Source of the DNA: Thermoanaerobaculia bacterium
Lineage (GTDB): Bacteria; Acidobacteriota; Thermoanaerobaculia; UBA5066
Reading direction: 5' to 3'
NCBI GenBank assembly: GCA_036504335.1
Contig: DASXVJ010000023.1
Span: 144,389-208,388 of the forward strand
DNA length: 64,000 bases
Part shown: piece after piece, positions 9,374 to 43,148 of the stretch
Layout of the letters: every line of letters begins with the position of its first letter
How positions within the stretch are numbered: position 1 is the stretch's first letter
The notes under the pieces: generated by a model
Told to the model about the DNA's origin: nothing
Database searches by the model: none
What the model saw: the letters and a program-made list of their open reading frames with translations, nothing else
Made by a program: the position numbers and the translations under genes

Positions 9374-10195
9374 ATGATCGACAAGGATTCCATCGCCGCC
9401 GCCGGTTCCCCCGATCGAGCCCTGCTCGACGGGCTCGACCTCGCGCGACTGCCCCGGCACGTGGCCGTGATCATGGACGGCAACGGGCGCTGGGCGCGCC
9501 AGCGCCGGCTGCCGCGCGTGGAGGGCCACCGCGCGGGGATCGCCTCCGTGCGGGCCACCGTGGAGACGGCCGCGCGCCTGAAGCTGACCGCGCTGACGCT
9601 CTACGCGTTCTCGACGGAGAACTGGAAGCGGCCGCACCTCGAGGTCGCGACGCTCATGGCGCTCCTCAAGGAGTACCTCAGGCGCGAGCTGAAGACGCTG
9701 CTCGACAACGACATCAGGTTCCGCGTCGTGGGCCGCATGGACGGGCTCGACCCTTCCGTGCAGCGTGAGCTGCAGAGCGCGCTCGACGCGACGGCGCACT
9801 GCAAGGGGATGGTGTTCAACATCGCGCTCAACTACTCCGGGCGCACCGAGCTCGCGGACGCGATGCGGTCGCTCGCCGCCGAGGTGAAGGCCGGACGCCT
9901 GCAGCCCGAGGAGATCGACGAGGCGGCGATCGAGGCGCGCCTCTACACGGCCGGCCTTCCCGACCCGGACCTCCTGATCCGGACGAGCGGCGAGATGCGG
10001 ATCTCGAACTACCTGCTCTGGCAGATCGCCTATTCCGAGATCTACGTGACGCCGGTCCTCTGGCCCGACTTCCGGGCCCGCGATTTCCTCGAGGCGATCG
10101 CGGAGTTCCAGAAGCGCGAGCGGCGGTACGGCGGCGTGCCGGAGACCGAGCCCCTGCGAGAGGACGGCCCGCGCCCGGCGGCGGCCACGCGGTGA
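9374..10195 (+). CDS. uppS: Undecaprenyl-diphosphate synthase
   Basis: Motifs HVAVIMDGNGRWA, LTLYAFSTENWKRP and RTSGEMRISNYLLWQ. Confidence 0.95.
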   Translation: MIDKDSIAAAGSPDRALLDGLDLARLPRHVAVIMDGNGRWARQRRLPRVEGHRAGIASVRATVETAARLKLTALTLYAFSTENWKRPHLEVATLMALLKEYLRRELKTLLDNDIRFRVVGRMDGLDPSVQRELQSALDATAHCKGMVFNIALNYSGRTELADAMRSLAAEVKAGRLQPEEIDEAAIEARLYTAGLPDPDLLIRTSGEMRISNYLLWQIAYSEIYVTPVLWPDFRARDFLEAIAEFQKRERRYGGVPETEPLREDGPRPAAATR

Positions 10196-11010
10196 GGTTC
10201 CAGAGGGAAGTCACGGCCGCCGTTCTCATCCCGGCGGTCCTCGCGGTGCTGGTCTTCGCGCCGACGTGGGCGTTCTCGCTGCTGGTCGCAGCGGCGGCCT
10301 GCGTCGCGCTCCTGGAGTTCTACGCTCTCCTCGCGGCCGCGGGCTGGATCGTGCCCCGCGCCGCGGGGCTCGTCCTCTTCGTGGCGCTCCTCGTTGCCGC
10401 GCACCTCGCCGCGCCCGTCGCCCTGCTCGCGCTCACGGCCGCGACGCTGCTTCTCCTCCCGACGCTCGTGATGTTCGCCTCGCCGGCCGAGGCGCTCTAC
10501 CTCCCGTCGTCGGCGGGCGCCGTCTTCGCGACGCTCTACGTCGCGCTCGGCGGAGCCTCGATCATCGGGCTGCGCGCGCACGGCTGGCAGCCCGTGGTGT
10601 TCCTCCTCGCGGTCGTCTGGGCCGGCGACTCGGCGGCGTACTACGTGGGCCGCCGCTGGGGGAAGCGCAAGCTCGCTCCCGTCGTGAGCCCGAAGAAGAC
10701 GTGGGAAGGCCTCTGGGGCCAGCTCGCAGGCGGGGCGCTCTTCGGGGCGGCCGCGGCGTTCCTGATCTCCCCGGGCGCGCGGGGCGACGCCTCCGTCGCC
10801 CTCGCAGGCGCCGCGTTCGGCCTCGTCGTGTCGGCCACCGCCGTCGTCGGCGATCTCGTGGAGTCGACGTTCAAGCGGAGCGTGCACGTCAAGGACTCCG
10901 GCGGCCTCCTGCCCGGCCACGGCGGCCTCCTCGACCGGCTGGACTCCTTGCTCTACGCTTCGCCCGTGCTGCTCTTCACCCTGACCCTCCTGCCCGGAGG
11001 CCCTCGTTGA
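10192..11010 (+). CDS. cdsA: Phosphatidate cytidylyltransferase
   Basis: Multi-pass membrane protein. CTP_transf_1 signature SxxKRxxxxKDSGxLLPGHGGxLDRxDS near the C-terminus. Confidence 0.9.
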   Translation: MRFQREVTAAVLIPAVLAVLVFAPTWAFSLLVAAAACVALLEFYALLAAAGWIVPRAAGLVLFVALLVAAHLAAPVALLALTAATLLLLPTLVMFASPAEALYLPSSAGAVFATLYVALGGASIIGLRAHGWQPVVFLLAVVWAGDSAAYYVGRRWGKRKLAPVVSPKKTWEGLWGQLAGGALFGAAAAFLISPGARGDASVALAGAAFGLVVSATAVVGDLVESTFKRSVHVKDSGGLLPGHGGLLDRLDSLLYASPVLLFTLTLLPGGPR

Positions 11011-12200
11011 CCGCGAAGAAGCGAATCGCGCTCCTCGGAGCCACGGGCTCGATCGGCGACTCGGCGCTCTCGGTCGTCGCCCACTTCCCCGAGCGCTTCG
11101 AGGTCGTCACGATGTCGGCGGGCTCGAACCTCGAGAAGTTCCTCCCCGCGATCGCGGCCGTGCGGCCGAAGGTCGTCTCCGTGAAGACCCGCGAGGACGC
11201 GGCCCGCGTGCGGCAGGAGTTCCCCGGCATCTCCGTCGGATTCGGCGAACAGGGCCTCGTGGACGTCGCGACGCACCCCGACGCCGACGTCGTCCTCGGC
11301 GGAATCGTCGGCTCGGCGGGCCTCATCCCCGCGTACGAGGCCGTCAAGCTCGGCAAGACGCTCGCGCTCGCGAACAAGGAGACGCTCGTCGTCGCGGGCG
11401 AGCCGCTCATGCGCGCGGCCCGCGCGGCCGGCGCCGCCGTCCTCCCCGTGGACTCGGAGCACTGCGCGCTCCACCAGGCCCTCCGCGCCGGCGCCGCTTC
11501 CGAGGTGAGGCGCCTCGTCCTCACCGCCTCCGGCGGTCCGTTCCGGACGCGGCCGTTCGAGACGTTCTGCGCGATCACGGTCGAGGACGCGCTCCGCCAC
11601 CCGACCTGGAAGATGGGCCCGAAGATCACGATCGACTCGGCGACGATGATGAACAAGGGCCTCGAGGTCATCGAGGCCCGCTGGCTCTTCGACGTCGAGG
11701 TCGAGCGCATCGGCGTCGTGATCCACCCGCAGTCGATCGTCCACTCGATGGTCGAGTACGTGGACGGGTCGGTCCTCGCGCAGATGTCCCCGAACGACAT
11801 GCGCTTCCCGATCCTCTACGCGCTCTGCTACCCCGAGAGGATCGACACGCCCCTGCCGCGCCTCGACCTCGCGGCGCTCGGGACGCTCACGTTCGAGGCG
11901 CTCGACGAGGGGCGTTACCCCGCCGTCCCGCTCGCGTGCGCCGCTCTCAGGACGGGCGGCTCGGCCCCCGCCGTGCTGAACGCGGCGAACGAGGTGGCCG
12001 TCGAGGCGTTCCTCAAGGGGCGGATCCCGTACCTCGGGATCGTCGAGACGGTCGCGCGGGTCCTCGCGCGGCACAAGGTCCTTCCGATTTCCTCCGTCGC
12101 GGCGGCCCTCGAGGCCGACGCATGGTCGCGGCGCGAAGCCGAGACCCTCCTCCCGGCGCTCGAGCGGCCGGCGGCAACCAATCGCGCCGTTCCGGCGTAA
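11007..12200 (+). CDS. dxr: 1-deoxy-D-xylulose-5-phosphate reductoisomerase
   Basis: Read in the frame of track ORF 10266..12200. N-terminus KRIALLGATGSIGDSAL carries the NADPH GxxGxxG motif. TTG start overlaps the cdsA stop (TTGA). Confidence 0.95.
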   Translation: MTAKKRIALLGATGSIGDSALSVVAHFPERFEVVTMSAGSNLEKFLPAIAAVRPKVVSVKTREDAARVRQEFPGISVGFGEQGLVDVATHPDADVVLGGIVGSAGLIPAYEAVKLGKTLALANKETLVVAGEPLMRAARAAGAAVLPVDSEHCALHQALRAGAASEVRRLVLTASGGPFRTRPFETFCAITVEDALRHPTWKMGPKITIDSATMMNKGLEVIEARWLFDVEVERIGVVIHPQSIVHSMVEYVDGSVLAQMSPNDMRFPILYALCYPERIDTPLPRLDLAALGTLTFEALDEGRYPAVPLACAALRTGGSAPAVLNAANEVAVEAFLKGRIPYLGIVETVARVLARHKVLPISSVAAALEADAWSRREAETLLPALERPAATNRAVPA

Positions 12201-12215
12201 TCAACCCGAGGTTTC

Positions 12216-13565
12216 ATGAACATCCCGACAAACGTCCTTGCCCTCGTCTTCGTGCTCTCGTTCCTGATCGTCTTCCACGAGGGCGGGCACTTCGCCGTGG
12301 CGAAGTTCTTCAAGTTCCCGGTCGAGATCTTCTCCCTCGGCTTCGGAAAGCGGCTCTTCGGCTGGAAGCGCAGGGAGACGGACTACCGCGTCTCGCTCAT
12401 CCCGCTCGGCGGCTACGTGAAGGTCGTGGGCCTCGGGCCCGACGAAAGCGACATCGTCGCCGGGGAGCATGCGGCGCCCGCGCAGCCCGGCACGCGCCTG
12501 CAGCGCCTCCTCATCCTCTTCGCCGGTCCCGGCGTGAACCTCGTCTTTGCGGTGCTTCTGACCATGGGTGCGTTCATGATCGGGATCGAGCTGCCGCGTT
12601 ACTTCGAAGAGCGGCCCGTCGTGACGTTTGTCGACCCGGGCAGTCCCGCGGAATCCGCCGGGGTCAAGCCCAACGACCTCATCACCTCACTGTTTGGCAA
12701 GCCGGTGACGACATGGCGCGAGGTGGAGTTGCAGACGGGTCTGGGCTCGCGCCAGAAAATCCCGATCGAAGTGCTTCGTGACGGCCAGACGGTCACGCTG
12801 ACGCTTCAGCCGGAGCCCAAGACCGAAGAGCAGAAGAAGTACGACGTCGGGTTCACGGGTCTGCACGCGGCGGTGCCCGTTTACGTCGGCAGCGTGCTGG
12901 CCGGCTCGCCGTCGGCCAAGGCCGGCCTGAAAGTGGACGACCGGATCGTCTCGGTGGGAGGCCACGAAGTGTCGTGCTTCTCTGCGGTGGTCTGGCGCAT
13001 CGCCCAGGAAGCCCAGGACTTCAAGGAGAAAGGCGCGCGGCCGATCGACATCGGCGTCGAGCGAGAGGGGGCGCGGCTGACCATTCCCGTCACCCCGCGC
13101 GCAGAGGGCGCCGCCTGGAGAATCGGGTTTGGCGCCAAGTTTCTCGACACCGTGAGGCGATCCCTCCCGGTAGGGGCCGCCTTTGAGTCTTCGGTGAGAG
13201 AACTGCGGGATCAGGTTCGCGCCACGGGAACCATTCTCGGCCGGCTCTTCGCATTCAAAGGATCTTTCCGACAGCTCTCGGGCCCGATCGACATCGCCAA
13301 GTTCTCCGGGGAAGCCGCCAGGGCGGGCGTCGCCCCGTTGCTGAGTCTCATGGGCGTCCTCTCGCTGCAGCTCGGCCTCCTGAACCTCCTGCCGATCCCG
13401 CTCCTCGACGGCGGCCAGATCTTCGTGACGCTTCTCGAGGCCGCCGCGCGGCGCGACTTCTCGATCAAGGTCAAGGAGCGCCTCCTGCAGGCCGGGTTCG
13501 CGTTCCTCGTCCTCATCATGGTCACCGTCCTCTACTTCGACGTCATCAAGAACGTCTCGTTCTGA
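12216..13565 (+). CDS. rseP: RIP metalloprotease RseP (site-2 protease)
   Basis: HEGGH zinc motif, PDZ domains, and a C-terminal LDGG motif. Confidence 0.9.
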
Positions 13566-14794
13566 TGCCGCGTCCTCGCACGGTCGGCGTGCCCGTCGGA
13601 GGGATCCAGGTCGGCGGCGGCGCGCCCGTGGTCGTCCAGTCCATGTCGAACACGGACACGGCGGACGTGGACGCCACGGTCAAGCAGGGACTCGAGCTCG
13701 CCGAGGCGGGCTCGGAGCTCGTGCGGATCACGGTGAACGTGGACGAGGCCGCGCAGGCCGTCCCGGAGATCAAGCGGCGCCTCCTCGCCGCCGGCTGCGG
13801 CGTCCCGCTCATCGGGGACTTCCACTACAACGGCCACGTCCTGCTGACGAAGTACCCGGAGATGGCGAGGGCCCTCGACAAGTACCGGATCAACCCGGGC
13901 AACGTCGGAACGGGGAAGCGCCGGGACGAGCAGTTCGCGACGATCTGCGGCGTCGCGCGCGACCTCGGGCGGCCCGTGCGCATCGGCGTGAACGGAGGCT
14001 CGCTGAACCAGGAGCTCGTCATGCAGAAGATGCAGGAAAACACGGACCGGGACCTCGGGAGGACGTCGGAGGAGATCGTCGCCGAGTGCATGGTCCTCTC
14101 CGCGCTCCAGTCCACCGAGCTCGCGCTCGAGTGCGGGCTGAGGAAGGACCAGATCATCATCTCGTGCAAGGTGTCGCGCCCGAGCGACCTCGTCGCGGTG
14201 TACCGCGACCTCGCGGCGAAGACGGACCAGCCGCTGCACCTCGGCCTCACGGAAGCCGGGATGGGGACGAAGGGCCTCGTGTGGTCGTCGGCGGCGATGG
14301 GGATCCTCCTCGCCGAGGGCATCGGCGACACGATCCGCGTGTCGCTCACGCCGCGCCCGGGCGGCGACCGGCGCGAGGAGGTCTACGCGGCGTGCGAGCT
14401 CCTGCAGGCGCTCGGGATCCGGAGCTTCGCGCCGTCCGTCACGGCCTGCCCCGGGTGCGGGCGCACGACGTCGACGACGTTCCAGGAGCTTGCCGAGCGG
14501 ATCCAGGGCTACGTGCGCGAGCGGATGCCCGTCTGGAAGGCGGAGCGCGAGGGCGTCGAGACGATGACGCTCGCCGTGATGGGCTGCATCGTGAACGGGC
14601 CGGGAGAGTCGAAGGCCGCGAACATCGGGATCTCGCTCCCGGGCACGGGCGAAGAGCCGAGCTGCCCCGTGTACGTCGACGGCCAGAAGTTCGCGACGCT
14701 CAAGGGCAACTACGACGAGCTCTCCGCCGCGTTCCGGAAGCTCGTGGACGACTACGTCGAGACGAAGTACCCGCGCAAGGGCGCGTCCTCCTAG
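13565..14794 (+). CDS. ispG: 4-hydroxy-3-methylbut-2-en-1-yl diphosphate synthase
   Basis: 409 aa GcpE family. Cluster Cys residues CPGCGRT...[13 protein letters not shown] overlaps the rseP stop (ATGA). Confidence 0.95.
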
Positions 14795-22863: not shown

Positions 22864-22960
22864 CGTCGCACGCGGCGCGTGTTAAATTCCCCGCTTCACG
22901 GGCCATCCGTTGAGAATGATTCTCCTCGGGGGCGGGGCCGTGTATCTTCGGAGGATCTAC

Positions 22961-24847
22961 ATGCGGAAGGTGGTCTACAGGTCCATTCGCGGTGCGGCCA
23001 ACACCGCCTGGAACGTGTTCCAGGCCGTGAACCGCCGCGTGCCCGCGCGTTCCTTCCAGCCCTCCTGGTCGCCCGAGCCGCTCCCGAAGAGCCACGAGCG
23101 CACAAAGCCGCCTCTCGGGTTCCCGCGCCGCACGGACTCCCTCTGCCCGACCTGCACCCGGGAGGTCCGCGATGCGATCGTGGGCGGCACGCGTGAGCTC
23201 TCGGAGCTCATCGACGGTCGCCCCGGCGAGATCCCGGCCGACATCGTCCAGCGCGGCAACGAGATCTGGATGGTCAAGACGTGCCCGAAGCACGGCACGT
23301 TCGAGGACCTCATGGCGAGCGACGCGCGCTTCTTCGCACGCCTCGAAGAGAACTTCTTCGGCCGCGACGTGAGGATCGCGAAGGACAAGCTCCACGACCA
23401 CGGCTCCTCCTCGATGCGCTACGGCCGCGGCGCGGTCCTCACGGTGGACCTCACGAACCGCTGCAACATGATGTGCAACCCGTGCTTCATGGACGCCAAC
23501 CAGGTCGGCTACGTGCACGAGCTCGGGTGGGACGACGTCAAGGAGATCCTCGACAACGCCGTCTCGATCAAGCCGCAGCGCCAGATGTCCGTGCAGTTCT
23601 CGGGCGGCGAGCCCACGATCTCGCCGTTCTTCATCGAGGCCACGCGCTACGCCCGCGAGATCGGCTACTTCTCGGTCCAGTGTGCGACGAACGGAATTCG
23701 CTTCGCGCAGGAGCCGGAATTCGCGAAGGCCGCGTACGACGCGGGGCTCCGGCTCGCGTACCTCCAGTTCGACGGCGTCGGAGACGAGGCCAACGAGCAC
23801 CGCGGCGTCGGGAACCTCTACGACGTGAAGCTCCGGGCGCTCGCCAACCTCCACGCGGCGGGGATCGACGTCACGCTCGTCACGACGATCGTGAACGGCG
23901 TCAACGACGACCAGGTCGGCCCGACCCTGAAGTTCGCGATCGAGAACATCGACAAGATCAACGCCCTCTCGTTCCAGCCCGTGTCCTTCACGGGCCGCGA
24001 CGAGGAGATCGACGACGAAACGCGCACGAAGCAGCGCTATACGCTCGCCCATCTCGCGCACGACGTGAAGGACCAGGCCGGCATCGGCGAGCCGATGCGC
24101 GACTGGTTCCCGCTGTCGGCCTCGGGCCCGTTCTCGGACCTGAAAGACCTCCTCGGCGGCCTCGAGGCGCAGTGGGGCTCGCTCAAGTGCGGCTGCCACC
24201 CGAACTGCGGGATCGCGACGATGATGCTCGTGCGCCCGGACACGGGACAGGCCGTGCCCCTGACCCAGATCGTCGACGCGGACCGCCTGCTGCGCGACCT
24301 CACCGTCGTCACGGACGCCGCGCGCGGAAAGTTCCTGACGGTCCTCCAGACGGCGCTCGCTCTCGCGCGCAACATCCGTCCCGAGGGCGTTCCCCACAAC
24401 CTCGGCGTCTGGGAGACGCTCAAGGTCATGGACGGCCACACGGGCAAGGGCATGGGGATCGCGAAACAGGGCCGCTATCCGTGGCGCGTCCTCCTCGTGG
24501 CCGGGATGTGGTTCCAGGACCTCTTCAACTACGACTTCCGGCGGACGGAGATGTGCATCATTCCGTACGGAACGCAGCTCGGCGAGATCTCGTTCTGCGC
24601 GTACAACACCGGCGCGGGATGGCGGAAGATCGTCGAGGAGATGCACCAGAGCGCGACGCTCTCCGAGTGGTACAAGGACAAGGGCCGCCACCCCGTGTAC
24701 GCGCACGGCAAGCGCGTGCCGCTGCCCGCGTTCAACCCGGGGGCGCGCCCGTCGACGCTGCCGGTCTACGAGCCCGCGGCCGCCCGCACGGGCGACCTCC
24801 CGGCCGCCGCGATGCTTCCGAGCTTCGGCGCCGCTTCCGGGAAATAG
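22961..24847 (+). CDS. Radical SAM enzyme with N-terminal Zn-ribbon and C-terminal Cys/His-rich extension (function unknown)
   Basis: CNMMCNPC is a Cx3Cx2C motif in LTVDLTNRCNMMCNPCF. N-terminal CPTC...CPKHG treble-clef. C-terminal CGCHPNCG. GGAGGA Shine-Dalgarno 6 nt upstream of ATG 22961. Confidence 0.8.
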   Translation: MRKVVYRSIRGAANTAWNVFQAVNRRVPARSFQPSWSPEPLPKSHERTKPPLGFPRRTDSLCPTCTREVRDAIVGGTRELSELIDGRPGEIPADIVQRGNEIWMVKTCPKHGTFEDLMASDARFFARLEENFFGRDVRIAKDKLHDHGSSSMRYGRGAVLTVDLTNRCNMMCNPCFMDANQVGYVHELGWDDVKEILDNAVSIKPQRQMSVQFSGGEPTISPFFIEATRYAREIGYFSVQCATNGIRFAQEPEFAKAAYDAGLRLAYLQFDGVGDEANEHRGVGNLYDVKLRALANLHAAGIDVTLVTTIVNGVNDDQVGPTLKFAIENIDKINALSFQPVSFTGRDEEIDDETRTKQRYTLAHLAHDVKDQAGIGEPMRDWFPLSASGPFSDLKDLLGGLEAQWGSLKCGCHPNCGIATMMLVRPDTGQAVPLTQIVDADRLLRDLTVVTDAARGKFLTVLQTALALARNIRPEGVPHNLGVWETLKVMDGHTGKGMGIAKQGRYPWRVLLVAGMWFQDLFNYDFRRTEMCIIPYGTQLGEISFCAYNTGAGWRKIVEEMHQSATLSEWYKDKGRHPVYAHGKRVPLPAFNPGARPSTLPVYEPAAARTGDLPAAAMLPSFGAASGK

Positions 24848-24856
24848 CGCCCGGCC

Positions 24857-25642
24857 TCAGGGCGCGCGGAGAGCCGCCTCGGCGAGCGACGCGAGGCCTG
24901 CGGCCGCCTCGTCCGGCTGCTCGAGCGGAACCATGTGGCCGGCGCCCGGCACGGTCAGGAGCCTCACCCACGGCGCGTGCGCCGCGACGGCCGTCATGGC
25001 CTCCGAGTCGGCGGGCGGGGCGATCGCGTCCTCCTCGCCGACGGCGACGAGGAGAGGCCGGTCCCACGCGGAGAGAACCTCGAAGCCCTCGTCGCGCACG
25101 GCGAGGCCCGCAAGGTCGGCCATGGCCGTTTCGGGCGGCGTCGCGAGAACCATCCGAGTCACGAGGTCCTCGGCCGGCGTTCCCTTCGAGCCGTGGGCGA
25201 GGAGCTTCGGAAGCATCGCGGAGAGCACCGCCTCGATGCCGTCCTTGCGGATGGCCTCGATGGCCGCCTTCCGGCCCGCGCGTCCCGCGGTGTCGTCGGC
25301 GGAGGCCTTCGTGTCGAAGAGAGCGAGGCCACGGAGGCGGCCCTGAAAGCGCGCGCCGTGTCGCTTGATGAGCTCGAAGCAGACGTAGCCGCCCATCGAG
25401 AGCCCCGCGAGGAGGAAGGGCGCGTCGGCCGGCAGCGCCGCTCCGAGGTCGCGCGCGACGTCGTCCGCGAGGAGCGACATCGCGTGCGTGGCGGCGGCGG
25501 GATGCGGCGACCGCCCGCGCCCGCGCAGGTCCGGGGCGAAGACGGACGTGATCGGGCCGAGCCGGCCGTCCGCGGCCCGTTCGGCGAGCGGGTTCCACAT
25601 GCGCCGGTCGAGGGGGTAGCCGTGGAGCGCGACGAGGTGCAT
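24857..25642 (-). CDS. Alpha/beta hydrolase
   Basis: Nucleophile elbow GLSMGG; HGYP oxyanion region. Confidence 0.75.
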   Translation of the reverse strand: MHLVALHGYPLDRRMWNPLAERAADGRLGPITSVFAPDLRGRGRSPHPAAATHAMSLLADDVARDLGAALPADAPFLLAGLSMGGYVCFELIKRHGARFQGRLRGLALFDTKASADDTAGRAGRKAAIEAIRKDGIEAVLSAMLPKLLAHGSKGTPAEDLVTRMVLATPPETAMADLAGLAVRDEGFEVLSAWDRPLLVAVGEEDAIAPPADSEAMTAVAAHAPWVRLLTVPGAGHMVPLEQPDEAAAGLASLAEAALRAP

Positions 25643-25652
25643 GGCGGCCATC

Positions 25653-27110
25653 TTAGCGGCCGGCGGCGGGCACGACCCGCCACTCCGCGTCGCCGGCGTT
25701 TCCGGCCGGCCGTGTCCTCTCCTTCACGAAGGCGTAAACGGCCGTCTCGCGAATACGCTCGACGTCGGCGATCGGCTCACGGAAGAGGATCGGCAGGCCT
25801 GGGCTCGCCGCGAGAGCGTCCACGAGCCGCTCGTTGCCGCGGTCGCGCCTCAGGCAGTACCAGAAGGACGGGTTCACGTAGAAGCGGCCGGGTGCGCCCG
25901 TGCCGGTGAGAGGGTAGAGGTTCTGCAGCGCGCCGTGGACGAGAAGCGTGCCTCCGGCGGGAACGCGCTCTCTCACGAGCGCCGCGGCGGCCCGGCTCGC
26001 CGAGTCGTCCCAGTAGAAGACGGGCCCACCGGCCCGGTCGAGGAGCAACGGCCCCGCGCCGAGCGCGGCGACGGCGAGGAAGACGGCACACGCTGCGGCG
26101 CCGCCGGCGGCCCCGAAAAGGCGAAGAGGTCCGCCCCGGCCTTTCCGGAGCCGGCGGAAGACGACGGGCAGAACGAGGGCGAGCCGGGCGGCCGCGAGCG
26201 CGCCGAGCCCCGTCAGGGCCGCGAGGTGCAGGAGGCCGGGACGCGGCCAGGCCATCCCGACTGCGCCGAGCGCGACCGCCGCGAGCGGCGAGCGCAGACG
26301 GCGCGCCGGCAGCGCCGCGGCAGAGAGGCCGAGCGCGGCGAACGGCACGAAGAGCACGAGCGCCTCGTGCGCGTCCGCCCCGGTGAGCCGGACGGCGATC
26401 TCCCGCGACATCCCGGAGAAGACGGGGTAGATCAGCGTCCAGGCGAGGTGCCGAGTCGTCCGGAACGCAAGGGCCCACGAGAGCGCGAAGCCGAGGTAGG
26501 GAAGAGCGGCCGCTGCGCCGAAGAGAAGCGCGGCGCGCCGCCGGCCGCGCAGAGCGACCCACAGGAGCGCGGCGAGCGCCGCCCACGCCGAGGTCTGTTT
26601 GACGAGGATCCCGGCGCCGAAGACGAGGCCCGCGGCCGCGACGTCGCCGAGCGCACCGGTGCGTTCGTGGCGCTCCAGGAGGAGGACGCCCGCGAGAAGG
26701 AGGGGCGCGAGGAACGGCTCGGGCCAGATCGCGGGACCTTCCGCGTAGACGGTCAGGAGCGCGAGGACGGGGACGCCGAGCGCGAGCGCGGCCCGCGGGC
26801 CCGATCGTGCTCGGCGGTGCGGGCGCGTGCCGAGCACGACGAGGCCGCCCGCCGCCGCCAGCGAGAGGGCCGGGATCGCGCGCAGGACGTTCGGGGTGAA
26901 GCCGAACAGGGCGCCGGCGGCGGCCGTCAGGAGAATCAGGAGAGGCGTGTGCGGAAAGAGGATCCCGTCATAGAGCCTGACGCCGCGCGTCACGAACCAC
27001 GCGGGCGTGACGATCTCCGGCCAGGCCGTGACCGACACGACGAACGGGAGCGCACCCGCGAGAAGGGCCGCGAGCGCGGCGATCGGGGCGGCCGCGCGCG
27101 CCCCTCTCAC
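25653..27110 (-). CDS. Polytopic membrane protein, GT-C-like glycosyltransferase/DUF2029-like
   Basis: Roughly 12 predicted TM helices. GTG start overlaps the stop of the upstream gene (GTGA). Confidence 0.6.
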   Translation of the reverse strand: MRGARAAAPIAALAALLAGALPFVVSVTAWPEIVTPAWFVTRGVRLYDGILFPHTPLLILLTAAAGALFGFTPNVLRAIPALSLAAAGGLVVLGTRPHRRARSGPRAALALGVPVLALLTVYAEGPAIWPEPFLAPLLLAGVLLLERHERTGALGDVAAAGLVFGAGILVKQTSAWAALAALLWVALRGRRRAALLFGAAAALPYLGFALSWALAFRTTRHLAWTLIYPVFSGMSREIAVRLTGADAHEALVLFVPFAALGLSAAALPARRLRSPLAAVALGAVGMAWPRPGLLHLAALTGLGALAAARLALVLPVVFRRLRKGRGGPLRLFGAAGGAAACAVFLAVAALGAGPLLLDRAGGPVFYWDDSASRAAAALVRERVPAGGTLLVHGALQNLYPLTGTGAPGRFYVNPSFWYCLRRDRGNERLVDALAASPGLPILFREPIADVERIRETAVYAFVKERTRPAGNAGDAEWRVVPAAGR

Positions 27111-27484
27111 TCGGGCCGGTACGTCACGCTGTTGCGCGGGCCCTCCCAGACCGTGACCTCTTCGAGCCGCGCGCCGTCCCCGAGGAGCGCCGCCTTCCCG
27201 ATCTCGTCCGCGACCCAGAGCGCGACGTTCTCGGCGCTCGCATTCCTGCGGTCGAACGGCGGCACGGTGTTGAGGTCGCGGTTGTGGAGGCGCGAGGCGA
27301 GCTCTCTGACGAACGCTTCCGTCGGCACGAAGTCGACGGCGAGGCCGTACGGGCCGAGGCGATCGACCGAGAGCGCGACCTCGATCTTCCAGGAGTGGCC
27401 GTGCACGGGCTCGGGGCCGCCGACGTAATCCACGAGATGGTGCGCGGCCTCGAAAGTCGCGTGGCAGCGGACGGTCCAGCGCAT
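27107..27484 (-). CDS. 6-pyruvoyl-tetrahydropterin synthase family protein (QueD-like, catalytic Cys not conserved)
   Basis: FEAAHHL...PVHGHSWKIEV is the PTPS Zn-binding HGH motif. The Cys normally 4 residues before HGH is Pro (GGPEPVHGH). Confidence 0.75.
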   Translation of the reverse strand: MRWTVRCHATFEAAHHLVDYVGGPEPVHGHSWKIEVALSVDRLGPYGLAVDFVPTEAFVRELASRLHNRDLNTVPPFDRRNASAENVALWVADEIGKAALLGDGARLEEVTVWEGPRNSVTYRPE

Positions 27485-27518: not shown

Positions 27519-29174
27519 TCAAACGGTTTCGAGGTAGCGGTGCACGACGCCGACGGCGCCGGAGCCCTCGCCGACGGCCGCGGCGACTCTCTTGCCCGAG
27601 CCCGCGCGCACGTCGCCGGCGGCGAACACTCCCGGAACGCTCGACTCGAAGAGGAACGGGTCCCTCTCGAGCGTCCAGCCGCGGGGCCGCCGGCCCAGGG
27701 GCGTCAGATCGGGCCCGGTCACGACGAAGCCCGCCTCGTCGATCTCGAGGAACCCGGCGACCATCTCGGTCTGCGGCCTTGCACCGATGAAGATGAACAT
27801 CGCCGCCGCGTCGAGCTCGCGCTCGTCCCCCCCGGCGAGGCGGCGGACGACGATCTTCTCGAGCCGGCCGTCGCCCCGAACTGCGCTCACTTCGACGCCC
27901 GGCACGACGTCGATGTTCGGCGTCGCCTCGATCCGGTCGATCAGGTAGCGGGACATCGACTTGGCGAGGGAGTCCGCGCGGACGAGCATCGTGACGCGGC
28001 GCGCGTAGCGGGAGAAGAAGAGGGCTCCCTGGCCGGCCGAGTTCCCCGCGCCGACGACGCACACGTCCCGGCCACGATAGGTCGCGGCCTCGGTCATCGC
28101 CGCACCGTAGTAGACGCCGATCCCGAGGAGCGCCTCGGAGCCGGACGTCTCCAGCTTCCGCACGGCGACGCCTGTGGCCAGGACGACGGCGTAGCAGCTC
28201 ACGTCGGTCCCGTCGGCGAGCCGGGCGACGCGATACGGGTCCTCGCGGCGCAGGCTGACGACCTCCTGGGCGATCACCTCGGCGCCGAAGCGCCGCGCCT
28301 GGGTCGTGGCGCGGCGGGCGAGGTCGGCCCCGGATACGCCCGACGGGAAGCCGAGGTAGTTCTCGATCCTCGAGCTGGTGCCGGCCTGGCCGCCGGGCGC
28401 GCTCTGCTCGACGAGGGCCGTGCGCAGCCCCTCCGACGCTCCGTAGACCGCCGCGGCGAGGCCCGCCGGGCCTCCGCCGACGATCAGCAGGTCGTAGAAA
28501 GGCAGGCGCGCCTTCGTCTGCATCCCGGTCTTCTCCGCGAGCTCGCGGCTCGTCGGAGCGGCCAGGAACGTGCCGTCCGGGAAGAGGACGACGGGGAGCT
28601 TCGTCTCGGCGCCGAACGAGCGGATCAGCTCCCGGGTCGACGGGTCCTGGTCGACGTCGATCCACTGGTAGGGGATCTGGTTGCTCGACAGGAATTCCTT
28701 CACCGCGAAGCTGCGAGGCGACGACTGCGCGCCCGCGACCCGGATCCCTTCGTAGGGAAGGCGCACGTGCGCCGTCCAGTCGGACAGCAGGTCGTCGAGG
28801 ACCGGGTAGAGCCGCTCGGCGGGAGGGTCCCAGGGCTTCAGCAGGTAGTGATCCAGTCCGACGTCGTTGATGCCGGAGATCGCGGCCTGCGTGTCCGCGT
28901 ACGCCGTGAGGAGGACCCGGCGCGACTCGGGGTGAAGCTTGATCGCCTCGCGCAGGAATTCCGTGCCCGACATCATCGGCATCCGCTCGTCGGCGAGGAA
29001 GAGCGCGACCGGAGTTCCGCGCTGCTTGAGCTGGCGGGCGGCCTCGAGCGCTTCGCCCCCGGACACGGCCTTCAGGATGCGGTAGTCGCTCCGGTAGTGC
29101 TGCTTGAGGTCGCGCTCAATGGCGCCGAGCACCTCGGGGTCGTCGTCGACCGTCAGGATCACCGGTTTGGCCAT
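27519..29174 (-). CDS. Response regulator: REC domain fused to a Cys-less glutaredoxin-like linker and a thioredoxin-reductase-like FAD/NAD(P) oxidoreductase lacking the CxxC
   Basis: N-terminal REC (ILTVDDDPEVL...FLADERMPMMSG...LKP). Then GGGPAGLAAAVY (FAD GxGxxG) and VVGAGNSA (NAD). The TrxR CATC position reads YYGAAMTEAA. Confidence 0.8.
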   Translation of the reverse strand: MAKPVILTVDDDPEVLGAIERDLKQHYRSDYRILKAVSGGEALEAARQLKQRGTPVALFLADERMPMMSGTEFLREAIKLHPESRRVLLTAYADTQAAISGINDVGLDHYLLKPWDPPAERLYPVLDDLLSDWTAHVRLPYEGIRVAGAQSSPRSFAVKEFLSSNQIPYQWIDVDQDPSTRELIRSFGAETKLPVVLFPDGTFLAAPTSRELAEKTGMQTKARLPFYDLLIVGGGPAGLAAAVYGASEGLRTALVEQSAPGGQAGTSSRIENYLGFPSGVSGADLARRATTQARRFGAEVIAQEVVSLRREDPYRVARLADGTDVSCYAVVLATGVAVRKLETSGSEALLGIGVYYGAAMTEAATYRGRDVCVVGAGNSAGQGALFFSRYARRVTMLVRADSLAKSMSRYLIDRIEATPNIDVVPGVEVSAVRGDGRLEKIVVRRLAGGDERELDAAAMFIFIGARPQTEMVAGFLEIDEAGFVVTGPDLTPLGRRPRGWTLERDPFLFESSVPGVFAAGDVRAGSGKRVAAAVGEGSGAVGVVHRYLETV

Positions 29175-29177
29175 CCC

Positions 29178-30572
29178 TCAGCCCTTTCCTGCGTCGAGAG
29201 GGAGCGTCACGCGGAACTCGGTGCTCCCGGGGCGCGAGTCGGCCTCGATCTCTCCCTGGTGTTTGCGGACGATGCGCCGCGCGATGTCGAGGCCGAGGCC
29301 GGTGCCCTGGCCGACCGGCTTCGTCGTGAAGAACGGATCGAAGATGCGCTCCCGGATCTCCGGGGGCAATCCAGGCCCGTCGTCGACGACGCGCACGACG
29401 ACGGACGGGCCCTGGCGCGCCGCCGAGACGTCGACGCGGCCCTTGGCCGCGTCGAGCGCGTTGTCGACGAGATTCGCCCACACCTGGTTGAGCTCGCCCC
29501 CGAATCCCGGGATGCGCGGGAGGTCGGCCGGGGCGTCGAGGCTCACGCTCACGGACTTGCCGCGGGCCTTCGCGTTCAGCACGGCGAGCGTGTCGGCCAG
29601 CCCCTGGCGGACGTCCACCGGTTTGGGCATGGTGGCCTGGTCCATGTACGTGAAGCCCTTCACCGCCGCGACGAGATTGTGGATCTTCGTCGCGGAGGCC
29701 TCGATCTCGGACGCCAGCCGGTACGTCCCGCAGCCGGCCACGAGCCAGGGGAGGGTCGCCCGGAGAGCCTCGGCGTCGAGCGCCCCGGCGAGCTCGTCGA
29801 GGGATTCGAGAGTGACCGCGGACTCCGCGAGCGCCTCGGCGGCGGTGACGTCGGCGCCGTGACGCGAGAGCCAGCCGGCGAGGGCGTCTTCACGATCCGC
29901 CTGCTCGATGGGAGAGCGCCCGAACGTCGCGCCGGCCGCGAGCTGGCAGAGATTGCGCGCCCGGTCCACCGAGGCCCGCTGGGCCTCGGTGAGGCGGGCG
30001 GCGCCGAGCGCGCGGGACGCCGTTTCGAGCTCCGACAGCCCGAGCCGGAGTCCCTTGGCGCTCCGGGCGACCGCCGACGCCGGGTTATTCAGCTCGTGCG
30101 CGAGCCCCGCCGCCAGCTTGCCGAGGGAGGACATCCTTTCTTCGTGAAGGTCGCTCGACGTGAACTGGCGGGCGCGGTCGACCATGACGTGCACGAAGAT
30201 CGCGGTGAGGTCGTAGCAGTCGCGAATCAGCTCGGGGATCTCCTTGCGCGGGATCACGAGGATTTCCGTCGGCGCCTCGGCCTTCACGTCGCCCGGCGAC
30301 CCGGCGAGACGCGAGTACGGCAGGACGCCGCTCACGTCACCGCCGCGCCACTCCATGACCTTGTGGGGCCCGGCGCCCCGGTCGACGTAAATCGACAGGT
30401 GGCCCGAGAGGATGATGTAGAGACCCAGCACCGCATTGCCCTTGGCCGAGAGGACGTCTCCGGTCTCCAGCTTGACGAGGTGGCCGCGGGCGGCGAGCCA
30501 GGCGAGCTGGTCGGAAGGGGCGCCGGCGAGCAGCCGGTGCGCGGACAGACGATCGAGGATCGAACTCTCCAT
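29178..30572 (-). CDS. Cytoplasmic sensor histidine kinase with N-terminal cyclic-nucleotide-binding (CAP-like) domain
   Basis: H-box GLAHELNNP, N-box NLVDNALDA, G1 VVDDGPGLP, G2 GTGLGLDI. N-terminal roughly 120 aa has a cNMP-binding fold. No TM segment. Confidence 0.85.
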   Translation of the reverse strand: MESSILDRLSAHRLLAGAPSDQLAWLAARGHLVKLETGDVLSAKGNAVLGLYIILSGHLSIYVDRGAGPHKVMEWRGGDVSGVLPYSRLAGSPGDVKAEAPTEILVIPRKEIPELIRDCYDLTAIFVHVMVDRARQFTSSDLHEERMSSLGKLAAGLAHELNNPASAVARSAKGLRLGLSELETASRALGAARLTEAQRASVDRARNLCQLAAGATFGRSPIEQADREDALAGWLSRHGADVTAAEALAESAVTLESLDELAGALDAEALRATLPWLVAGCGTYRLASEIEASATKIHNLVAAVKGFTYMDQATMPKPVDVRQGLADTLAVLNAKARGKSVSVSLDAPADLPRIPGFGGELNQVWANLVDNALDAAKGRVDVSAARQGPSVVVRVVDDGPGLPPEIRERIFDPFFTTKPVGQGTGLGLDIARRIVRKHQGEIEADSRPGSTEFRVTLPLDAGKG

Positions 30573-30581
30573 GGTGAGAGT

Positions 30582-33227
30582 TTATGCGCCGAGGACGGTT
30601 TCGAGCCGCGTCACGCGCACGGCGTGCTGGCCCTCGGGCGGGACGCCGTATTCTTTCTCGAGGAATTTCTTCGGCGTCGTGGCGGTCGCTCCCATGAGCG
30701 AGAGGCGCTCTTCGCGCGTCTCGCCGTTCGGAAGCGTAAACGCGTAAACGGCCTCCGTCACGGCCCTTCCGAGCGACTTCGCGCCCTTCGGGAGCTCGAC
30801 AGAGGACGTGATCACGAGGCCCGGAGGGAGCCGGTCGTTCACGGCGGAGACGTGGGCGTCCGTCAGCGCGTCGAGGACGTCCACGTCGAAGAGCTCGTGT
30901 TTCGACTCGTGCCCGAGCGGAAGGGCCGGACCCATCGACAGGCGCAGGTGCGGGTTGTAGCCCTCCGTGTAACGCACGGGCGCGCCCGAGGCGCGCAACG
31001 CGCGCTCGAGGACGTCCATCGTGTTGCGGTGCGAGAGGTACCGCGCGTCGCCGAGCTTCTCGAACGAGAGGCGGTACGTCCGCGCGGACTCCGGCACGGG
31101 AGCCGCGACGCCGCTCGCGGGCGAGCGGCGCTCACGCAGCGGGAGAAGATCCGGCGTCGACTTCATGCGGTATGCCGCGCCCTTGGCTTTTTCGGTATAG
31201 GCGGAGGGGAGGGGAAAAGACTCTTCTGCTGAAGAAGAAGAGGGGAGAAGAGTTTCTTCGAGTGATTGTGAGGGCGATGCGCCCGCGCCCTGCGCAGGCG
31301 CGACGGGCAACGCCCCGCCGCCGAGGCTGCCTCTCTTACCTTCTAAGAAATCCGAATCCGAATCCGAAGCAAAATTGAATTCCTTCGGCAGCGGATTCGC
31401 GAGGACGATGTCCTCGCCGTTGCCCGGGACGCCGCAGGCGTAGCAGTGCCCCCACTTGCAGTCGTCCGTGTGCATCTCCTTGAGCGCCTTCTTCCACTCC
31501 ACGACGAGGAAGGGCTTGCGGATGGACGCGTCGACGACGTCCCAGGGGAGCGTCTCCTTGAGGTCCTTGTCGCGGAGGTGGCGGAACTTCGGGACGCCTG
31601 CGGCCTCGAGCGCCTCCGTCCAGCGCTCCCACGAGAAGTGCTCGCTCCACGCGTCGAAGCGTCCGCCCCTCTTCCACACGTCGAGGACGGCGCGGCCCAT
31701 CCGCCGGTCGCCGAGCGAGAGCATCGCCTCGATCTCGGCTTCCTTCGGCTCGTGCCACGTCATCTTCGCTCCCTTGACGGAGCGGAAACGGTCCTTCAGG
31801 TACGCGATCTTCCGCGAGAGGTTCTCGACGCCGTCGAACCCGAACCACTGGAAAGGCGTGAAGCTCTTCGGGATGAAGCAGCCGACCGAGACGTTCACCT
31901 GCGGTCTCACGCCGTGCCTGCGGCCCTGGGCGAGGATGTCCTTCACGAGCGTCACGAGCTCGTCGAGGTCCGGGTCGGTCTCCGTCGGGAGGCCGATCAT
32001 CGTGTAGACCTTGATCATGTCCCAGCCGCGCCCGAAGGCGACGTCGGCGGCCTGGACCATGTCGGCGTTCGTGAACGTCTTGTTGATGACGCGGCGGAGG
32101 CGGTCCGAGCCGGTTTCGGGCGCGAACGTGAAGCCGGACTTGCGCACCTCCGAGACGGCATCCGCGAGCGCGACGGAGAAGGCTTCGGCGCGGAGCGAGG
32201 GGAGGGAGATCGACACCTTCGTCTTCGCGAGCTCGGGCGCGAGGCACGCGACGAGCGGCTCGATCTGCGAGTAGTCCGCCGAGGAGAGCGAGAGGAGCCC
32301 GACCTCGCTCCAGCCCGCCTCGTCGATGAACGCCTTCGTCGCCTTCGCGACGTCGGCGGGGTCCAGCTCGCGCACGGGGCGGTACCAGTAGCCCGCCTGG
32401 CAGAACCGGCAACCCTGCGTGCAGCCGCGCATGATCTCGAGGCCGAGGCGGTCCTGGACGATGTCCACGGACGGGACCATGGGCTTTGCGGGATAGACGT
32501 CGGCCGAGAGCTTCTCCACCCAGACCCGCTTGACCTCTGCGGGAACTCCAGCCGTGTTCGGCGCGTACGCGGCGACACGATCCTCGTCATACGTCACGTC
32601 GTAGAGCGACGGGACGTAGATCCCCGGGCAGGCGGAGAACGCGAGGAGGCGCTCGCGGCGGGGGAGGCCCTTCGTCCGCGCGACGGCCCCGAGGAAAACG
32701 GGCAGCGCTTCCTCCGCGTCGCCGATCAAAAAGGCGTCGAAGAAATCGGCGAGGGGTTCGGGATTCGCGACGCAGGGGCCGCCGCCGATCACGACGGGGT
32801 GCGCGTCGCCGCGGTCCGCCGCGAGGACGGGGATCCCCGCGAGGTCGAGCATGTTCGGGACGTTCGTGTAGTTCATCTCGCTCTGGAGCGAGAGGCCGAA
32901 GACGTCGAAATCGCCCACGGGGGCGAAGGACTCGACGGAGAAGAGCGGGACCTTCTCCCGGCGCAGGACCGCCTCGAAGTCCGTCCACGGCGCGTACGTC
33001 CGCTCGCAGGCCCAGGCCGCGCGGCGGTTCACGATCTCATAGAGGATCTTCGTGCCCGTGTGGCTCATCCCGATCTCGTACGCGTCCGGGAAGCCGAGGC
33101 AGACCGTGACGTCCATCGCGCCGAGATCCTTGCGCACGACGTTCCGCTCCAGGCCGAGATAGCGCCCGGGGCGCTCGACGGCGAGGAGGAACGGCTCGAA
33201 GCGGGGGCGGACGGATGCGTAGCGCAA
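30582..33227 (-). CDS. Fused B12-binding radical SAM protein (TIGR03960-like) and DUF2344/TIGR03936-like C-terminal domain
   Basis: B12-binding N-terminus followed by a CxxxCxxC-type motif (CTQGCRFCQAGYWYRP). Ser/Asp/Glu-rich low-complexity linker. C-terminal DUF2344-like roughly 230 aa. TTG start at 33227 gives LRYASVRPRFEPFLLAVERPGRYLG, matching family N-termini; the upstream 290 aa of the track ORF are junk. Confidence 0.8.
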   Translation of the reverse strand: MRYASVRPRFEPFLLAVERPGRYLGLERNVVRKDLGAMDVTVCLGFPDAYEIGMSHTGTKILYEIVNRRAAWACERTYAPWTDFEAVLRREKVPLFSVESFAPVGDFDVFGLSLQSEMNYTNVPNMLDLAGIPVLAADRGDAHPVVIGGGPCVANPEPLADFFDAFLIGDAEEALPVFLGAVARTKGLPRRERLLAFSACPGIYVPSLYDVTYDEDRVAAYAPNTAGVPAEVKRVWVEKLSADVYPAKPMVPSVDIVQDRLGLEIMRGCTQGCRFCQAGYWYRPVRELDPADVAKATKAFIDEAGWSEVGLLSLSSADYSQIEPLVACLAPELAKTKVSISLPSLRAEAFSVALADAVSEVRKSGFTFAPETGSDRLRRVINKTFTNADMVQAADVAFGRGWDMIKVYTMIGLPTETDPDLDELVTLVKDILAQGRRHGVRPQVNVSVGCFIPKSFTPFQWFGFDGVENLSRKIAYLKDRFRSVKGAKMTWHEPKEAEIEAMLSLGDRRMGRAVLDVWKRGGRFDAWSEHFSWERWTEALEAAGVPKFRHLRDKDLKETLPWDVVDASIRKPFLVVEWKKALKEMHTDDCKWGHCYACGVPGNGEDIVLANPLPKEFNFASDSDSDFLEGKRGSLGGGALPVAPAQGAGASPSQSLEETLLPSSSSAEESFPLPSAYTEKAKGAAYRMKSTPDLLPLRERRSPASGVAAPVPESARTYRLSFEKLGDARYLSHRNTMDVLERALRASGAPVRYTEGYNPHLRLSMGPALPLGHESKHELFDVDVLDALTDAHVSAVNDRLPPGLVITSSVELPKGAKSLGRAVTEAVYAFTLPNGETREERLSLMGATATTPKKFLEKEYGVPPEGQHAVRVTRLETVLGA
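31333..31350. repeat. Copy (18/19) of the low-GC CTCTT(C)ACCTTCTAAGAAA motif
   Basis: ctcttaccttctaagaaa; encodes DFLEGKRG on the minus strand. Confidence 0.5.
31351..31368. repeat. Tandem hexamer (TCCGAA)x3 in the inter-domain linker, encoding SDSDSD
   Basis: Direct reading tccgaatccgaatccgaa. Confidence 0.6.
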
Positions 33228-41723: not shown

Positions 41724-43148
41724 TCAAGGGGCGTGCGGCGCGCCCCCCGCCCCCGCGATCGCGTTCGCGTAGTACCGGAGGAGCGGCAGCTCCGCGGCGA
41801 CGGGCCGGAAGAGACCGCCGTCCGCGAGGACGACGTGCCGGAGCATGAGCGCCCTGAGGCCGACGGACACGGCGTAGTCCTGGTCGCCGCGCGGCACGTG
41901 GACGTATGCGCCCCCGGCTTCGAGAGCGCGCCAGCGGGCGAGGACCTCGGACTTCAGCTCGAGCTCGCTCCACGCCCGCTCCGGCGCGTCGACGAGGACG
42001 CTCGCGACGAGCGAGACGGGCAGGACCGGAATCACGCGCGCGATCCGCTCCATGAGGTCCTTCGCGAGGCCCTCGACGGCGGCGAACCGCGCCTCCCGCG
42101 AGACGGTCCCGAGGTCGAGGTCCTTCCGTGCGAGCCACTCCCGCGTCGACACAGGAGACCCGAAGCTCACGCAGGCATAGCCGAAGCGGCGCCACTCGTT
42201 CGCGATCACGAGGCGCGCGTTGCGCCGGACGAAGCGGAGCGTCTCGGCGAGGGTGTCGGCCGGAGAGGCTTTGCCCTGCGCCGGGGAGCGGTCGAGGAGG
42301 AGCGTGCGGTCTTCGAGGACGCGGTCGTAGTTGACTCCGACCGGGATGAAGACGAGATCGCGCGGACCCTTCGGGTCGAAGCCGCGGAGCATGTAGTCGA
42401 GGAGGCCGAGCTTCGGGGGGCGCAGCGCGCCGTCCTTCGAGAGCCCGCCCTCGGGGTAGACGGCCTGCGGAACGCCGTTCGCCGTGGCCATCGCGACCCA
42501 GCGCTCGAGGACGCGCCGGTAGAGCGGATCCTTCGAGTCGCGCCGCACGAAGTACGCGCCGGTCGCCCGCAGGAATCCCTGGATGGGCCAGATCCGCGCC
42601 CATTCGCCGACGGCGTAGCTGAGAGCCGTCTTCTCGGCCGCCAGGTACGAGAGGAGGAAGTAGTCCATGTTGCTCCGGTGGTTCATGACGAAGACCACCG
42701 TCGAGCCGTCGGGGATCGCCCGCAGGCCGGCGTCGTCCGCCGTGCCGAGGCGCACGCGGTAGAGCGAGCGCGCGACCGCGCGGGCGATCGCGTAACCCGC
42801 GCGAAAGTAGATCCACGCGTTGAAGGCCGGGACGATCTCCCGCGCGTCGCGGTCGACGCGTTTCTGCACTTCGTCGCGGGAGAGGCCCGACTCCTTCGCG
42901 AACGCGTCGGCGGCCTCGAGGACCTTGAGGTCGAAGCGGAGCTGGTCCACGAGAACCTCGCGCTTCGTCATCTTGAACGGCGGGAGGCGCACGGGGAGGC
43001 GCGCGTTCAGCTCGTCGATGACGCGGTTCGCGCGGCGGCGCATCACGGCGCGGGCGGCGGGGCGGAGCAGCCGGTCGAGAACCGCCCAGCCCGCGAGAGA
43101 TGCGAGCAGGACGAAGGCCCAGAGCGGGACTGCGACGGAGGAGGACAT
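41724..43148 (-). CDS. Acyltransferase (PlsC/LPLAT family, HxxxxD) with C-terminal extension
   Basis: Motif VFVMNHRSNMDYFLL (H-x4-D). Confidence 0.7.
   Translation of the reverse strand: MSSSVAVPLWAFVLLASLAGWAVLDRLLRPAARAVMRRRANRVIDELNARLPVRLPPFKMTKREVLVDQLRFDLKVLEAADAFAKESGLSRDEVQKRVDRDAREIVPAFNAWIYFRAGYAIARAVARSLYRVRLGTADDAGLRAIPDGSTVVFVMNHRSNMDYFLLSYLAAEKTALSYAVGEWARIWPIQGFLRATGAYFVRRDSKDPLYRRVLERWVAMATANGVPQAVYPEGGLSKDGALRPPKLGLLDYMLRGFDPKGPRDLVFIPVGVNYDRVLEDRTLLLDRSPAQGKASPADTLAETLRFVRRNARLVIANEWRRFGYACVSFGSPVSTREWLARKDLDLGTVSREARFAAVEGLAKDLMERIARVIPVLPVSLVASVLVDAPERAWSELELKSEVLARWRALEAGGAYVHVPRGDQDYAVSVGLRALMLRHVVLADGGLFRPVAAELPLLRYYANAIAGAGGAPHAP

Follow-up and report, generated by a model that had tools for sequence, protein, structure and literature searches.

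A 64-kb stretch of Thermoanaerobaculia DNA (phylum Acidobacteriota; hereafter the window) encodes, at 27107..27484 on the minus strand, a 125-aa protein of the 6-pyruvoyltetrahydropterin synthase (PTPS)/QueD family, referred to below as the window PTPS. From the combined analysis we conclude with fair confidence that this protein is most likely a PTPS-III-type paralog, with a glutamate used in place of the catalytic cysteine, that would bypass dihydroneopterin aldolase (FolB), probably in folate synthesis. Enzymes of this kind were described in 2008-2009 and predicted specifically for Acidobacteria, and the window PTPS is most likely one of them rather than a new queuosine or glycosyl-pterin enzyme.

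In the proposed mechanism, the window PTPS would act as a Zn enzyme with His15, His28 and His30 as ligands, and Glu25 would serve as the general base, replacing the Cys of QueD and of classical PTPS. Judged from the Plasmodium and bacterial PTPS-III enzymes, its reaction would be the direct conversion of 7,8-dihydroneopterin triphosphate to 6-hydroxymethyl-7,8-dihydropterin, which would feed HPPK/DHPS in folate synthesis and bypass FolB. The genome would be expected to lack folB and to carry, elsewhere, a separate Cys-type queD serving queC and queE.

A probable glutamate active site in a PTPS-family protein

The gene and its diagnostic codons lie at the following positions.

27107..27484, minus strand: PTPS-family gene (COG0720, T-fold), 125 aa, E-only (PTPS-III-type) subclass; Pfam PF01242 and AF2 model
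27440..27442, minus strand: His15 of FEAAH, the third Zn ligand; invariant, aligns with His16 of E. coli QueD
27413..27415, minus strand: Pro24, at the position of the QueD Cys; from the sequence and its alignment to E. coli QueD
27395..27412, minus strand: Glu25-Pro-Val-His28-Gly-His30, the ExxHGH signature; read from the sequence
27281..27286, minus strand: His67-Asn68, where QueD/PTPS have the Asp-His partner of the catalytic Cys; this pair is not kept in the window PTPS
27143..27145, minus strand: Glu114 (WEGPxN), matching the conserved C-terminal Glu of PTPS/QueD; invariant, counterparts in the alignment being Glu110 (E. coli QueD) and the WEG motif (PH0634)

The open reading frame (ORF) is a real gene and a true member of the PTPS/QueD family. 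Its product, which begins MRWTVRCHATFEAAHHLVDYVGGPEPVHGHSW (also given as MRWTVRCHATFEAAHHLVDYVGGPEPVHGHSWKIEV), matched Pfam PF01242 with 92.6 bits (E = 2.2e-26, cutoff 22.4) over profile positions 2-120 of 121, and is identical to the product of a JGI gene (3300035523, Ga0376481_000053) and to NCBI HEY3350404.1, from a Thermoanaerobaculia metagenome-assembled genome (MAG) of the Acidobacteriota. The ORF displays a coding pattern of G+C at third codon positions (GC3), and the JGI gene call coincides with it. At the 70% G+C of the window, antisense ORFs share the GC3 profile, and genes were therefore called by codon log-odds, trained on the Pfam-supported genes of the window; these calls matched those of JGI in the region compared. 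When all six frames of the 64 kb were searched with the PTPS hidden Markov model, no second PTPS-family ORF was found, in agreement with an earlier reading made from the letters alone (the sequence-only reading), which had called this the only QueD-family gene of the window. Likewise, none of the 87 loci examined held a second PTPS gene.

The AF2 model of the window PTPS (pLDDT 82.5) was matched best by Foldseek to 2dj6, 4ntk, 3i2b and 2oba (TM 0.75-0.87), with 2dj6, the Pyrococcus horikoshii protein PH0634, in first place (TM 0.81/0.87, rmsd 2.2 Å). PH0634 was also the closest PDB relative by sequence (E = 3e-11, single-sequence query), and a profile of the clade scored it at 90 bits, ahead of the P. 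aeruginosa homolog (78 bits) and E. coli QueD (70 bits). By subfamily models the protein fell below all three NCBIfam cutoffs, including those of the QueD equivalog TIGR03367 (54.0 bits, cutoff 89.25) and the PTPS-related domain TIGR03112 (31 bits, cutoff 69.35).

The active-site motif reads YVGGPEPVHGH, in which Glu25 directly follows Pro24 to give E-P-V-H-G-H. The sequence-only reading had described FEAAH and HGH motifs, a Pro at the QueD Cys position (the Cys of CxxxHGH) and a sole Cys at residue 7, and both the sequence and the alignment to E. coli QueD agree with it on each point. It had also named a conserved Cys or Glu at the structurally equivalent position as a finding that would speak against it; the alignment contains such a residue, the conserved Glu25, which it had overlooked.

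Among 121 close homologs (80-89% identity, all from Thermoanaerobaculia/Acidobacteriota MAGs), F11-E-A-A-H15, E25, H28-G-H30 and W113-E-G115 are invariant, and position 118 is an invariant Asn in the close clade. The QueD Cys position is Pro in 119 of the 121, Cys7 is replaced by Val in 8, and positions 67-68 are variable. Across 25 E-only relatives, that is, proteins with the motif Glu and no Cys at the QueD position, at 32-49% identity, F11, H15, E25, HGH, D51 and E114 do not vary, and the Zn-binding triad of H15, H28 and H30 is thus invariant in close and distant homologs. In PTPS/QueD proteins the C-terminal Glu that Glu114 matches is the pterin anchor. Hundreds of MAG proteins remain 80-89% identical while the metal ligands, Glu25 and Glu114 do not vary, which indicates strong purifying selection.

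The motifs published for COG0720 are CxxxHGH for PTPS-I/QueD, CxxxxxHGH for PTPS-II, ExxHGH for PTPS-III, CExxHGH for the dual PTPS-I/III enzymes and FGPAQ for PTPS-IV (PMC5041015; PMC5445326). The window PTPS carries the PTPS-III signature, with Glu three residues before HGH. The marks of PTPS-I/QueD are all missing from it (CxxxHGH, the Asp-His pair, a TIGR03367 score above cutoff, clustering with que genes), no Cys lies between H15 and H28 as the PTPS-II motif would have it, and FGPAQ is absent from the sequence. In the founding PTPS-III, from Plasmodium falciparum, the active site taken from mutagenesis primers is YNGFRETLHGH; Glu38 sits at the spatial position of the Cys and is needed to form 6-hydroxymethyl-dihydropterin (6HMDP), the E38C mutant yielding no 6HMDP and E38L no detectable product (PMC2229834). 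The corresponding literature on P. vivax includes PDB entries 3m0n and 3lze, where Glu37 is termed 'catalytic residue'. Because Glu25 is in register with Plasmodium Glu38 and is invariant in the homologs examined, we place the window PTPS in the described PTPS-III class. According to published summaries, ExxHGH was enough for FolB-bypass activity in all tested cases, and Acidobacteria were reported to be one of several phyla that lack folB and use PTPS-III instead (Pribat 2009, as relayed by PMC4674097).

The surroundings of this class in sequence space were surveyed by an exhaustive search of 1.84 billion cluster representatives (50% clustering), which returned 2395 matches. The best 150 of these comprised 65 E-only, 36 Cys+Glu and 41 Cys-only proteins, and the nearest full-length representatives (42-53% identity) were all E-only with a common PEPxHGH core. 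The Asp-His pair is present in 39/40 Cys-only and 35/36 Cys+Glu representatives (together 74/76), compared with 17/64 of the E-only ones. Cys is entirely missing from ten of 54 E-only representatives, among them the nearest outgroups P0190, P0192, P0194 and P0201. Because the Asp-His pair is lost, the nearest outgroups are free of Cys and Cys7 is Val in 8/121 homologs, a Cys-based mechanism is, to judge from these alignments, excluded for the window subclade, which has the pattern PEPxHGHSW...WEGPxN. A profile built from distant E-only proteins retrieved mainly Cys+Glu proteins (90/117), and for this reason the E-only forms lie close to the dual-function PTPS-I/III enzymes and probably derive from them.

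A Cys in the C-terminal tail (WExxxC) occurs in 26/54 E-only representatives, against 10/39 Cys-only and 10/36 Cys+Glu ones. The E-only proteins form two subtypes, WEGPxN, which includes the window clade and resembles the WEGKDN of PH0634, and the tail-Cys type WExPxC. Apparent N-terminal fusions in E-only homologs (P0199, P0200, P0204 and others) were examined and set aside; Pfam recognised no second domain in them, and they are probably start-codon miscalls.

With the PTPS-III enzymes of P. falciparum and of bacteria of the Acidobacteria, Chloroflexi, Planctomycetes and Spirochaetes, the window PTPS shares the ExxHGH register without a Cys at the QueD position, the Zn-binding His triad and the C-terminal Glu, and its host phylum, Acidobacteriota, is among those reported without folB. 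It differs in having His-Asn for Asp-His and in showing no clustering with folate genes; identity to the Plasmodium PTPS is only 15-18% by structural alignment. The archaeal E-only protein PH0634 (PDB 2dj6/2dtt) is closer, at 32% identity with TM 0.81/0.87 and with EDVHGH and WEGxxN in common, but it retains the Asp-His pair (LDHRNLN). E. coli QueD (PDB 4ntk), a 6-carboxy-5,6,7,8-tetrahydropterin synthase, is alike in fold, size, Zn ligands and FEAAH, at 27-29% identity in the structural alignment, whereas its Cys27 is replaced by Pro and its Asp70-His71 by His-Asn in the window PTPS, and the window gene is not adjacent to queC/queE. The dual PTPS-I/III enzymes (CExxHGH) share the Glu and are what the E-only profile retrieves most often (90 of 117), which suggests common ancestry; they differ by retaining both the Cys and the Asp-His pair (the latter in 35/36), neither of which the window PTPS has.

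Queuosine genes, folate genes and the E-only relative P0416

The sequence-only reading had placed queC and queE together about 19 kb from the PTPS gene, and profile searches recovered queC and a queE-like gene there.

7150..7872, minus strand: queC; TIGR00364, 193 bits, above cutoff
7869..8525, minus strand: queE-like radical-SAM gene; TIGR04349, 257 bits, cutoff 300

Next to this pair, 5368..7149 on the plus strand encodes another PMT_2-type GT-C protein, which carries TPR repeats at its C terminus; the gene ends one base before the convergent queC.

The queC and queE-like genes are preQ0 genes that need QueD activity somewhere in the genome. It is conceivable, if unlikely, that the window PTPS provides it as the only COG0720 enzyme of the genome and supplies 6-carboxy-tetrahydropterin to queE and queC, whether as a QueD that needs no Cys or as an enzyme with both QueD and PTPS-III activity. 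Both genes are intact, neither the window nor the adjoining upstream 10 kb holds another PTPS-family ORF, NCBI names the window protein '6-carboxytetrahydropterin synthase', and the mainly Cys+Glu proteins that the E-only profile retrieves are of PTPS-I/III type. A further argument comes from the distant E-only protein P0416 (locus L090, 8001..10478; also L091 and L092), which is 34% identical to the window PTPS, has the motif GSLEPLHGH with no Cys at the QueD position, and has likewise lost the His of the Asp-His pair. Its gene lies directly upstream of an above-cutoff QueC, a DUF366 protein and a weakly QueE-like radical-SAM gene, with PabB-like and PabC/IlvE-like genes about 4 kb upstream of the cluster; a literature search on DUF366 turned up nothing relevant. 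However, P0416 carries Cys118 (WETEDC) where the window PTPS has its invariant Asn118 and no que neighbours, and it may be a Cys-relocated QueD or a dual enzyme.

Other evidence also speaks against a QueD function of the window PTPS. The catalytic Cys is indispensable in QueD-type enzymes, being essential in QueD and in QueD2, where the C23A mutation abolishes queuosine-modified tRNA (PMC9894224); the window subclade has neither a conserved Cys nor the Asp-His pair, and its score against the QueD model is far under the cutoff. The window covers about 2% of a genome of some 3-4 Mb, so that a queD elsewhere is the simple expectation. Genomic context points the same way. A scan of one genome per GTDB species yielded 80 loci, and genes were called in 80 high-GC loci, 77 from the scan and three fetched earlier, one of which was the window's own contig; in none of these 80 genomes was the PTPS gene clustered with queC/queE. 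The sequence-only reading was therefore right that this is no canonical QueD, whereas the noncanonical queuosine route that it offered as one interpretation is the less likely reading, and the partnership with a glycosyltransferase that it offered as the other is not favoured either.

Several observations weigh against the folate assignment itself. Neither a folate gene (folE, folK, folP) nor a queuosine gene lies within 10 kb of the PTPS gene in any of the 80 genomes, and the window (64 kb) and the 10 kb that precede it contain no folate gene either. These approximately 74 kb, examined out of a 357-kb contig, contain queC and queE and no Cys-type PTPS. The position of P0416 in a PTPS-queC-DUF366-queE-like cluster means that E-only proteins are not always separate from 7-deazaguanine synthesis. 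PH0634 is a putative PTPS-III enzyme, by its motif and by the description of the Pyrococcus furiosus PTPS PF1278 as a PTPS-III folate enzyme (PMC5041015); for archaea, the substrate may be the monophosphate (PMC5041015). On the other hand, the absence of fol neighbours agrees with a published network analysis in which PTPS-III genes had hardly any conserved neighbourhood (PMC5445326). Among the contexts of five other E-only relatives, P0416 included, one gene lies beside a chorismate-binding (TrpE/PabB-family) gene and another lies two genes from formate-tetrahydrofolate ligase, both of which we count in favour of a folate role.

That the window PTPS is a PTPS-family protein of some other function, such as a member of the unassigned 'PTPS-V' class, or a catalytically degenerate paralog, appears quite improbable. 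The loss of the Asp-His pair and the lack of nearby pathway genes would fit such a protein, but the strong purifying selection on metal ligands, Glu25 and Glu114 would not, and neither would the sufficiency of ExxHGH for FolB bypass given in the published summaries.

Gene neighbourhood of the PTPS gene

The PTPS gene belongs to a string of minus-strand genes, met by a convergent gene on the plus strand, with the following members besides the PTPS gene itself.

30582..33227, minus strand: fused TIGR03960 B12-binding radical-SAM/TIGR03936 (DUF2344) protein; NCBIfam 680 and 117 bits, both above cutoffs
29178..30572, minus strand: cNMP-binding histidine kinase; domain search
27519..29174, minus strand: receiver-glutaredoxin-like-thioredoxin-reductase fusion; domain search
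25653..27110, minus strand: GT-C/GT39 (PMT_2) membrane protein; PMT_2 28.5 bits, NCBI name 'glycosyltransferase family 39 protein'
24857..25651, minus strand: alpha/beta hydrolase, last gene of the same-strand string; Abhydrolase_6, Abhydrolase_1
22910..24847, plus strand: Tes-like radical-SAM protein with HMPTM zinc ribbon, convergent with the PTPS string; NF045702 326.6 bits, cutoff 450

The order on the minus strand is thus radical-SAM fusion, histidine kinase, receiver-thioredoxin-reductase fusion, PTPS, GT-C and alpha/beta hydrolase. The thioredoxin-reductase domain of the receiver fusion scored 232 bits against TIGR01292, below the cutoff, and a promoter/terminator scan of 24-34.5 kb gave no signal within the gene string that exceeded shuffled controls. 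After protein clustering, neighbours were tabulated for 79 genomes (the window's own contig was left out), divided into a close clade of 45 (71-96% identity) and a distant group of 34 (47-53% identity).

The most constant neighbour is the radical-SAM gene, which lies within three genes of PTPS in all 45 close genomes. In 35/45 close and 12/34 distant genomes it directly precedes PTPS in the same orientation, most of the gaps being between -4 and 27 bp; in some genomes (e.g. L006) the fusion is split into two genes. The histidine kinase and the response-regulator receiver fusion make up an unusual two-component pair. This pair, between the radical-SAM gene and PTPS, is present in the window and in 5/45 close genomes and absent from L003, L006 and most relatives, and is a lineage-specific insertion. 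The Tes-like cluster occurs within three genes of PTPS in 32/45 close genomes and the hydrolase in 21/45. Other arrangements were also seen: in one distant group the gene order is Fpg-uridine kinase-PTPS-lipoprotein-O-methyltransferase, the flanking genes of an Omnitrophota homolog are thioredoxin and a GST-like gene, and the context of an acidobacterial Cys+Glu 'QueD' (P0386) holds no pathway genes.

The proximity of the radical-SAM gene raises the idea that the TIGR03960/TIGR03936 B12 radical-SAM enzyme is a partner of the window PTPS in an undescribed pathway and might, for instance, methylate or rearrange the pterin that the window PTPS produces. The tight spacing in 35/45 close and 12/34 distant genomes speaks for it, and the TIGR03960/TIGR03936 family has no assigned function, a literature search on TIGR03960/DUF2344 having turned up nothing relevant. 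We nevertheless consider it very doubtful. The genomes with the pair all fall in a single lineage of class rank, in which synteny is extensive, and the neighbour is missing from other E-only relatives, namely the second Thermoanaerobaculia group with Fpg-Udk-PTPS, Omnitrophota, Nitrospinaceae and Phycisphaerales. Moreover, TIGR03960 proteins are common across bacteria where no PTPS gene adjoins them.

As the sequence-only reading had noted, a membrane glycosyltransferase adjoins the PTPS gene. It is of PMT_2/GT39 type, and the GTG start of the GT-C gene overlaps the PTPS stop by 4 nt (GTGA). A partnership of the two is unsupported, because the GT-C gene follows PTPS directly in only 11/45 close and 0/34 distant genomes; in the other close genomes the next gene is the hydrolase (11/45), an MFS transporter, the Tes-like gene or others, and the GT-C is a variable neighbour rather than a conserved partner. 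Cooperation of the window PTPS with this enzyme, for example in making a glycosylated pterin, is scarcely credible: the overlap suggests co-translation and the arrangement recurs in some relatives (L003, L006), but the unconserved linkage largely refutes it, another genome has its PTPS gene on one contig and a GT-C homolog (53% identical) on another, in a polysaccharide-type region with sugar-nucleotide genes around it, and GT-C enzymes use lipid-linked sugar donors on the outer side of the membrane while known pteridine glycosyltransferases are soluble.

Several further features of these regions were recorded. The assembly CAVZPE01 (L008, L016) has two PTPS-region copies on different contigs, 87% and 86% identical to the window protein, which may reflect a duplication or a bin of mixed origin. 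Many lipid and isoprenoid genes occur in the window at 9374..14794 and 41724..43148 (uppS, cdsA, dxr, an rseP-like M50 protease, ispG and a PlsB-like GPAT acyltransferase), and squalene/phytoene-synthase-like (cluster 25) and FAD-reductase-like (cluster 20) genes lie near PTPS in relatives. The Tes-like protein has the archaeal tetraether lipid synthase Tes (NF045702) as its best NCBIfam match; as a bacterial homolog, it may be relevant to how Thermoanaerobaculia make membrane-spanning lipids.

Annotation and metabolic reconstruction

The window PTPS and hundreds of its relatives are named '6-carboxytetrahydropterin synthase' by NCBI, a name that denotes QueD activity, and '6-pyruvoyltetrahydropterin/6-carboxytetrahydropterin synthase' by JGI; the QueD signature Cys is absent from all of them. 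The naming is likely a systematic over-annotation of the kind described in PMC5041015. The value of the finding lies mostly in this annotation, since the active-site signature points to the FolB-bypass (PTPS-III) reaction and not to the name assigned by the pipeline; current understanding is not challenged by the window PTPS.

We regard it as rather unlikely that, in Thermoanaerobaculia, a Cys-free and Asp-His-free E-only enzyme is the sole COG0720 protein and either serves both folate and preQ0 synthesis by a Cys-independent route or acts with the TIGR03960/TIGR03936 protein on a pterin. If the genome had no other PTPS and no folB, the gene would make it possible to test whether one Cys-free enzyme can supply two pathways. 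Correct naming of these proteins alters the reconstruction of folate and queuosine metabolism in Thermoanaerobaculia, a widespread uncultured lineage of soils and sediments.

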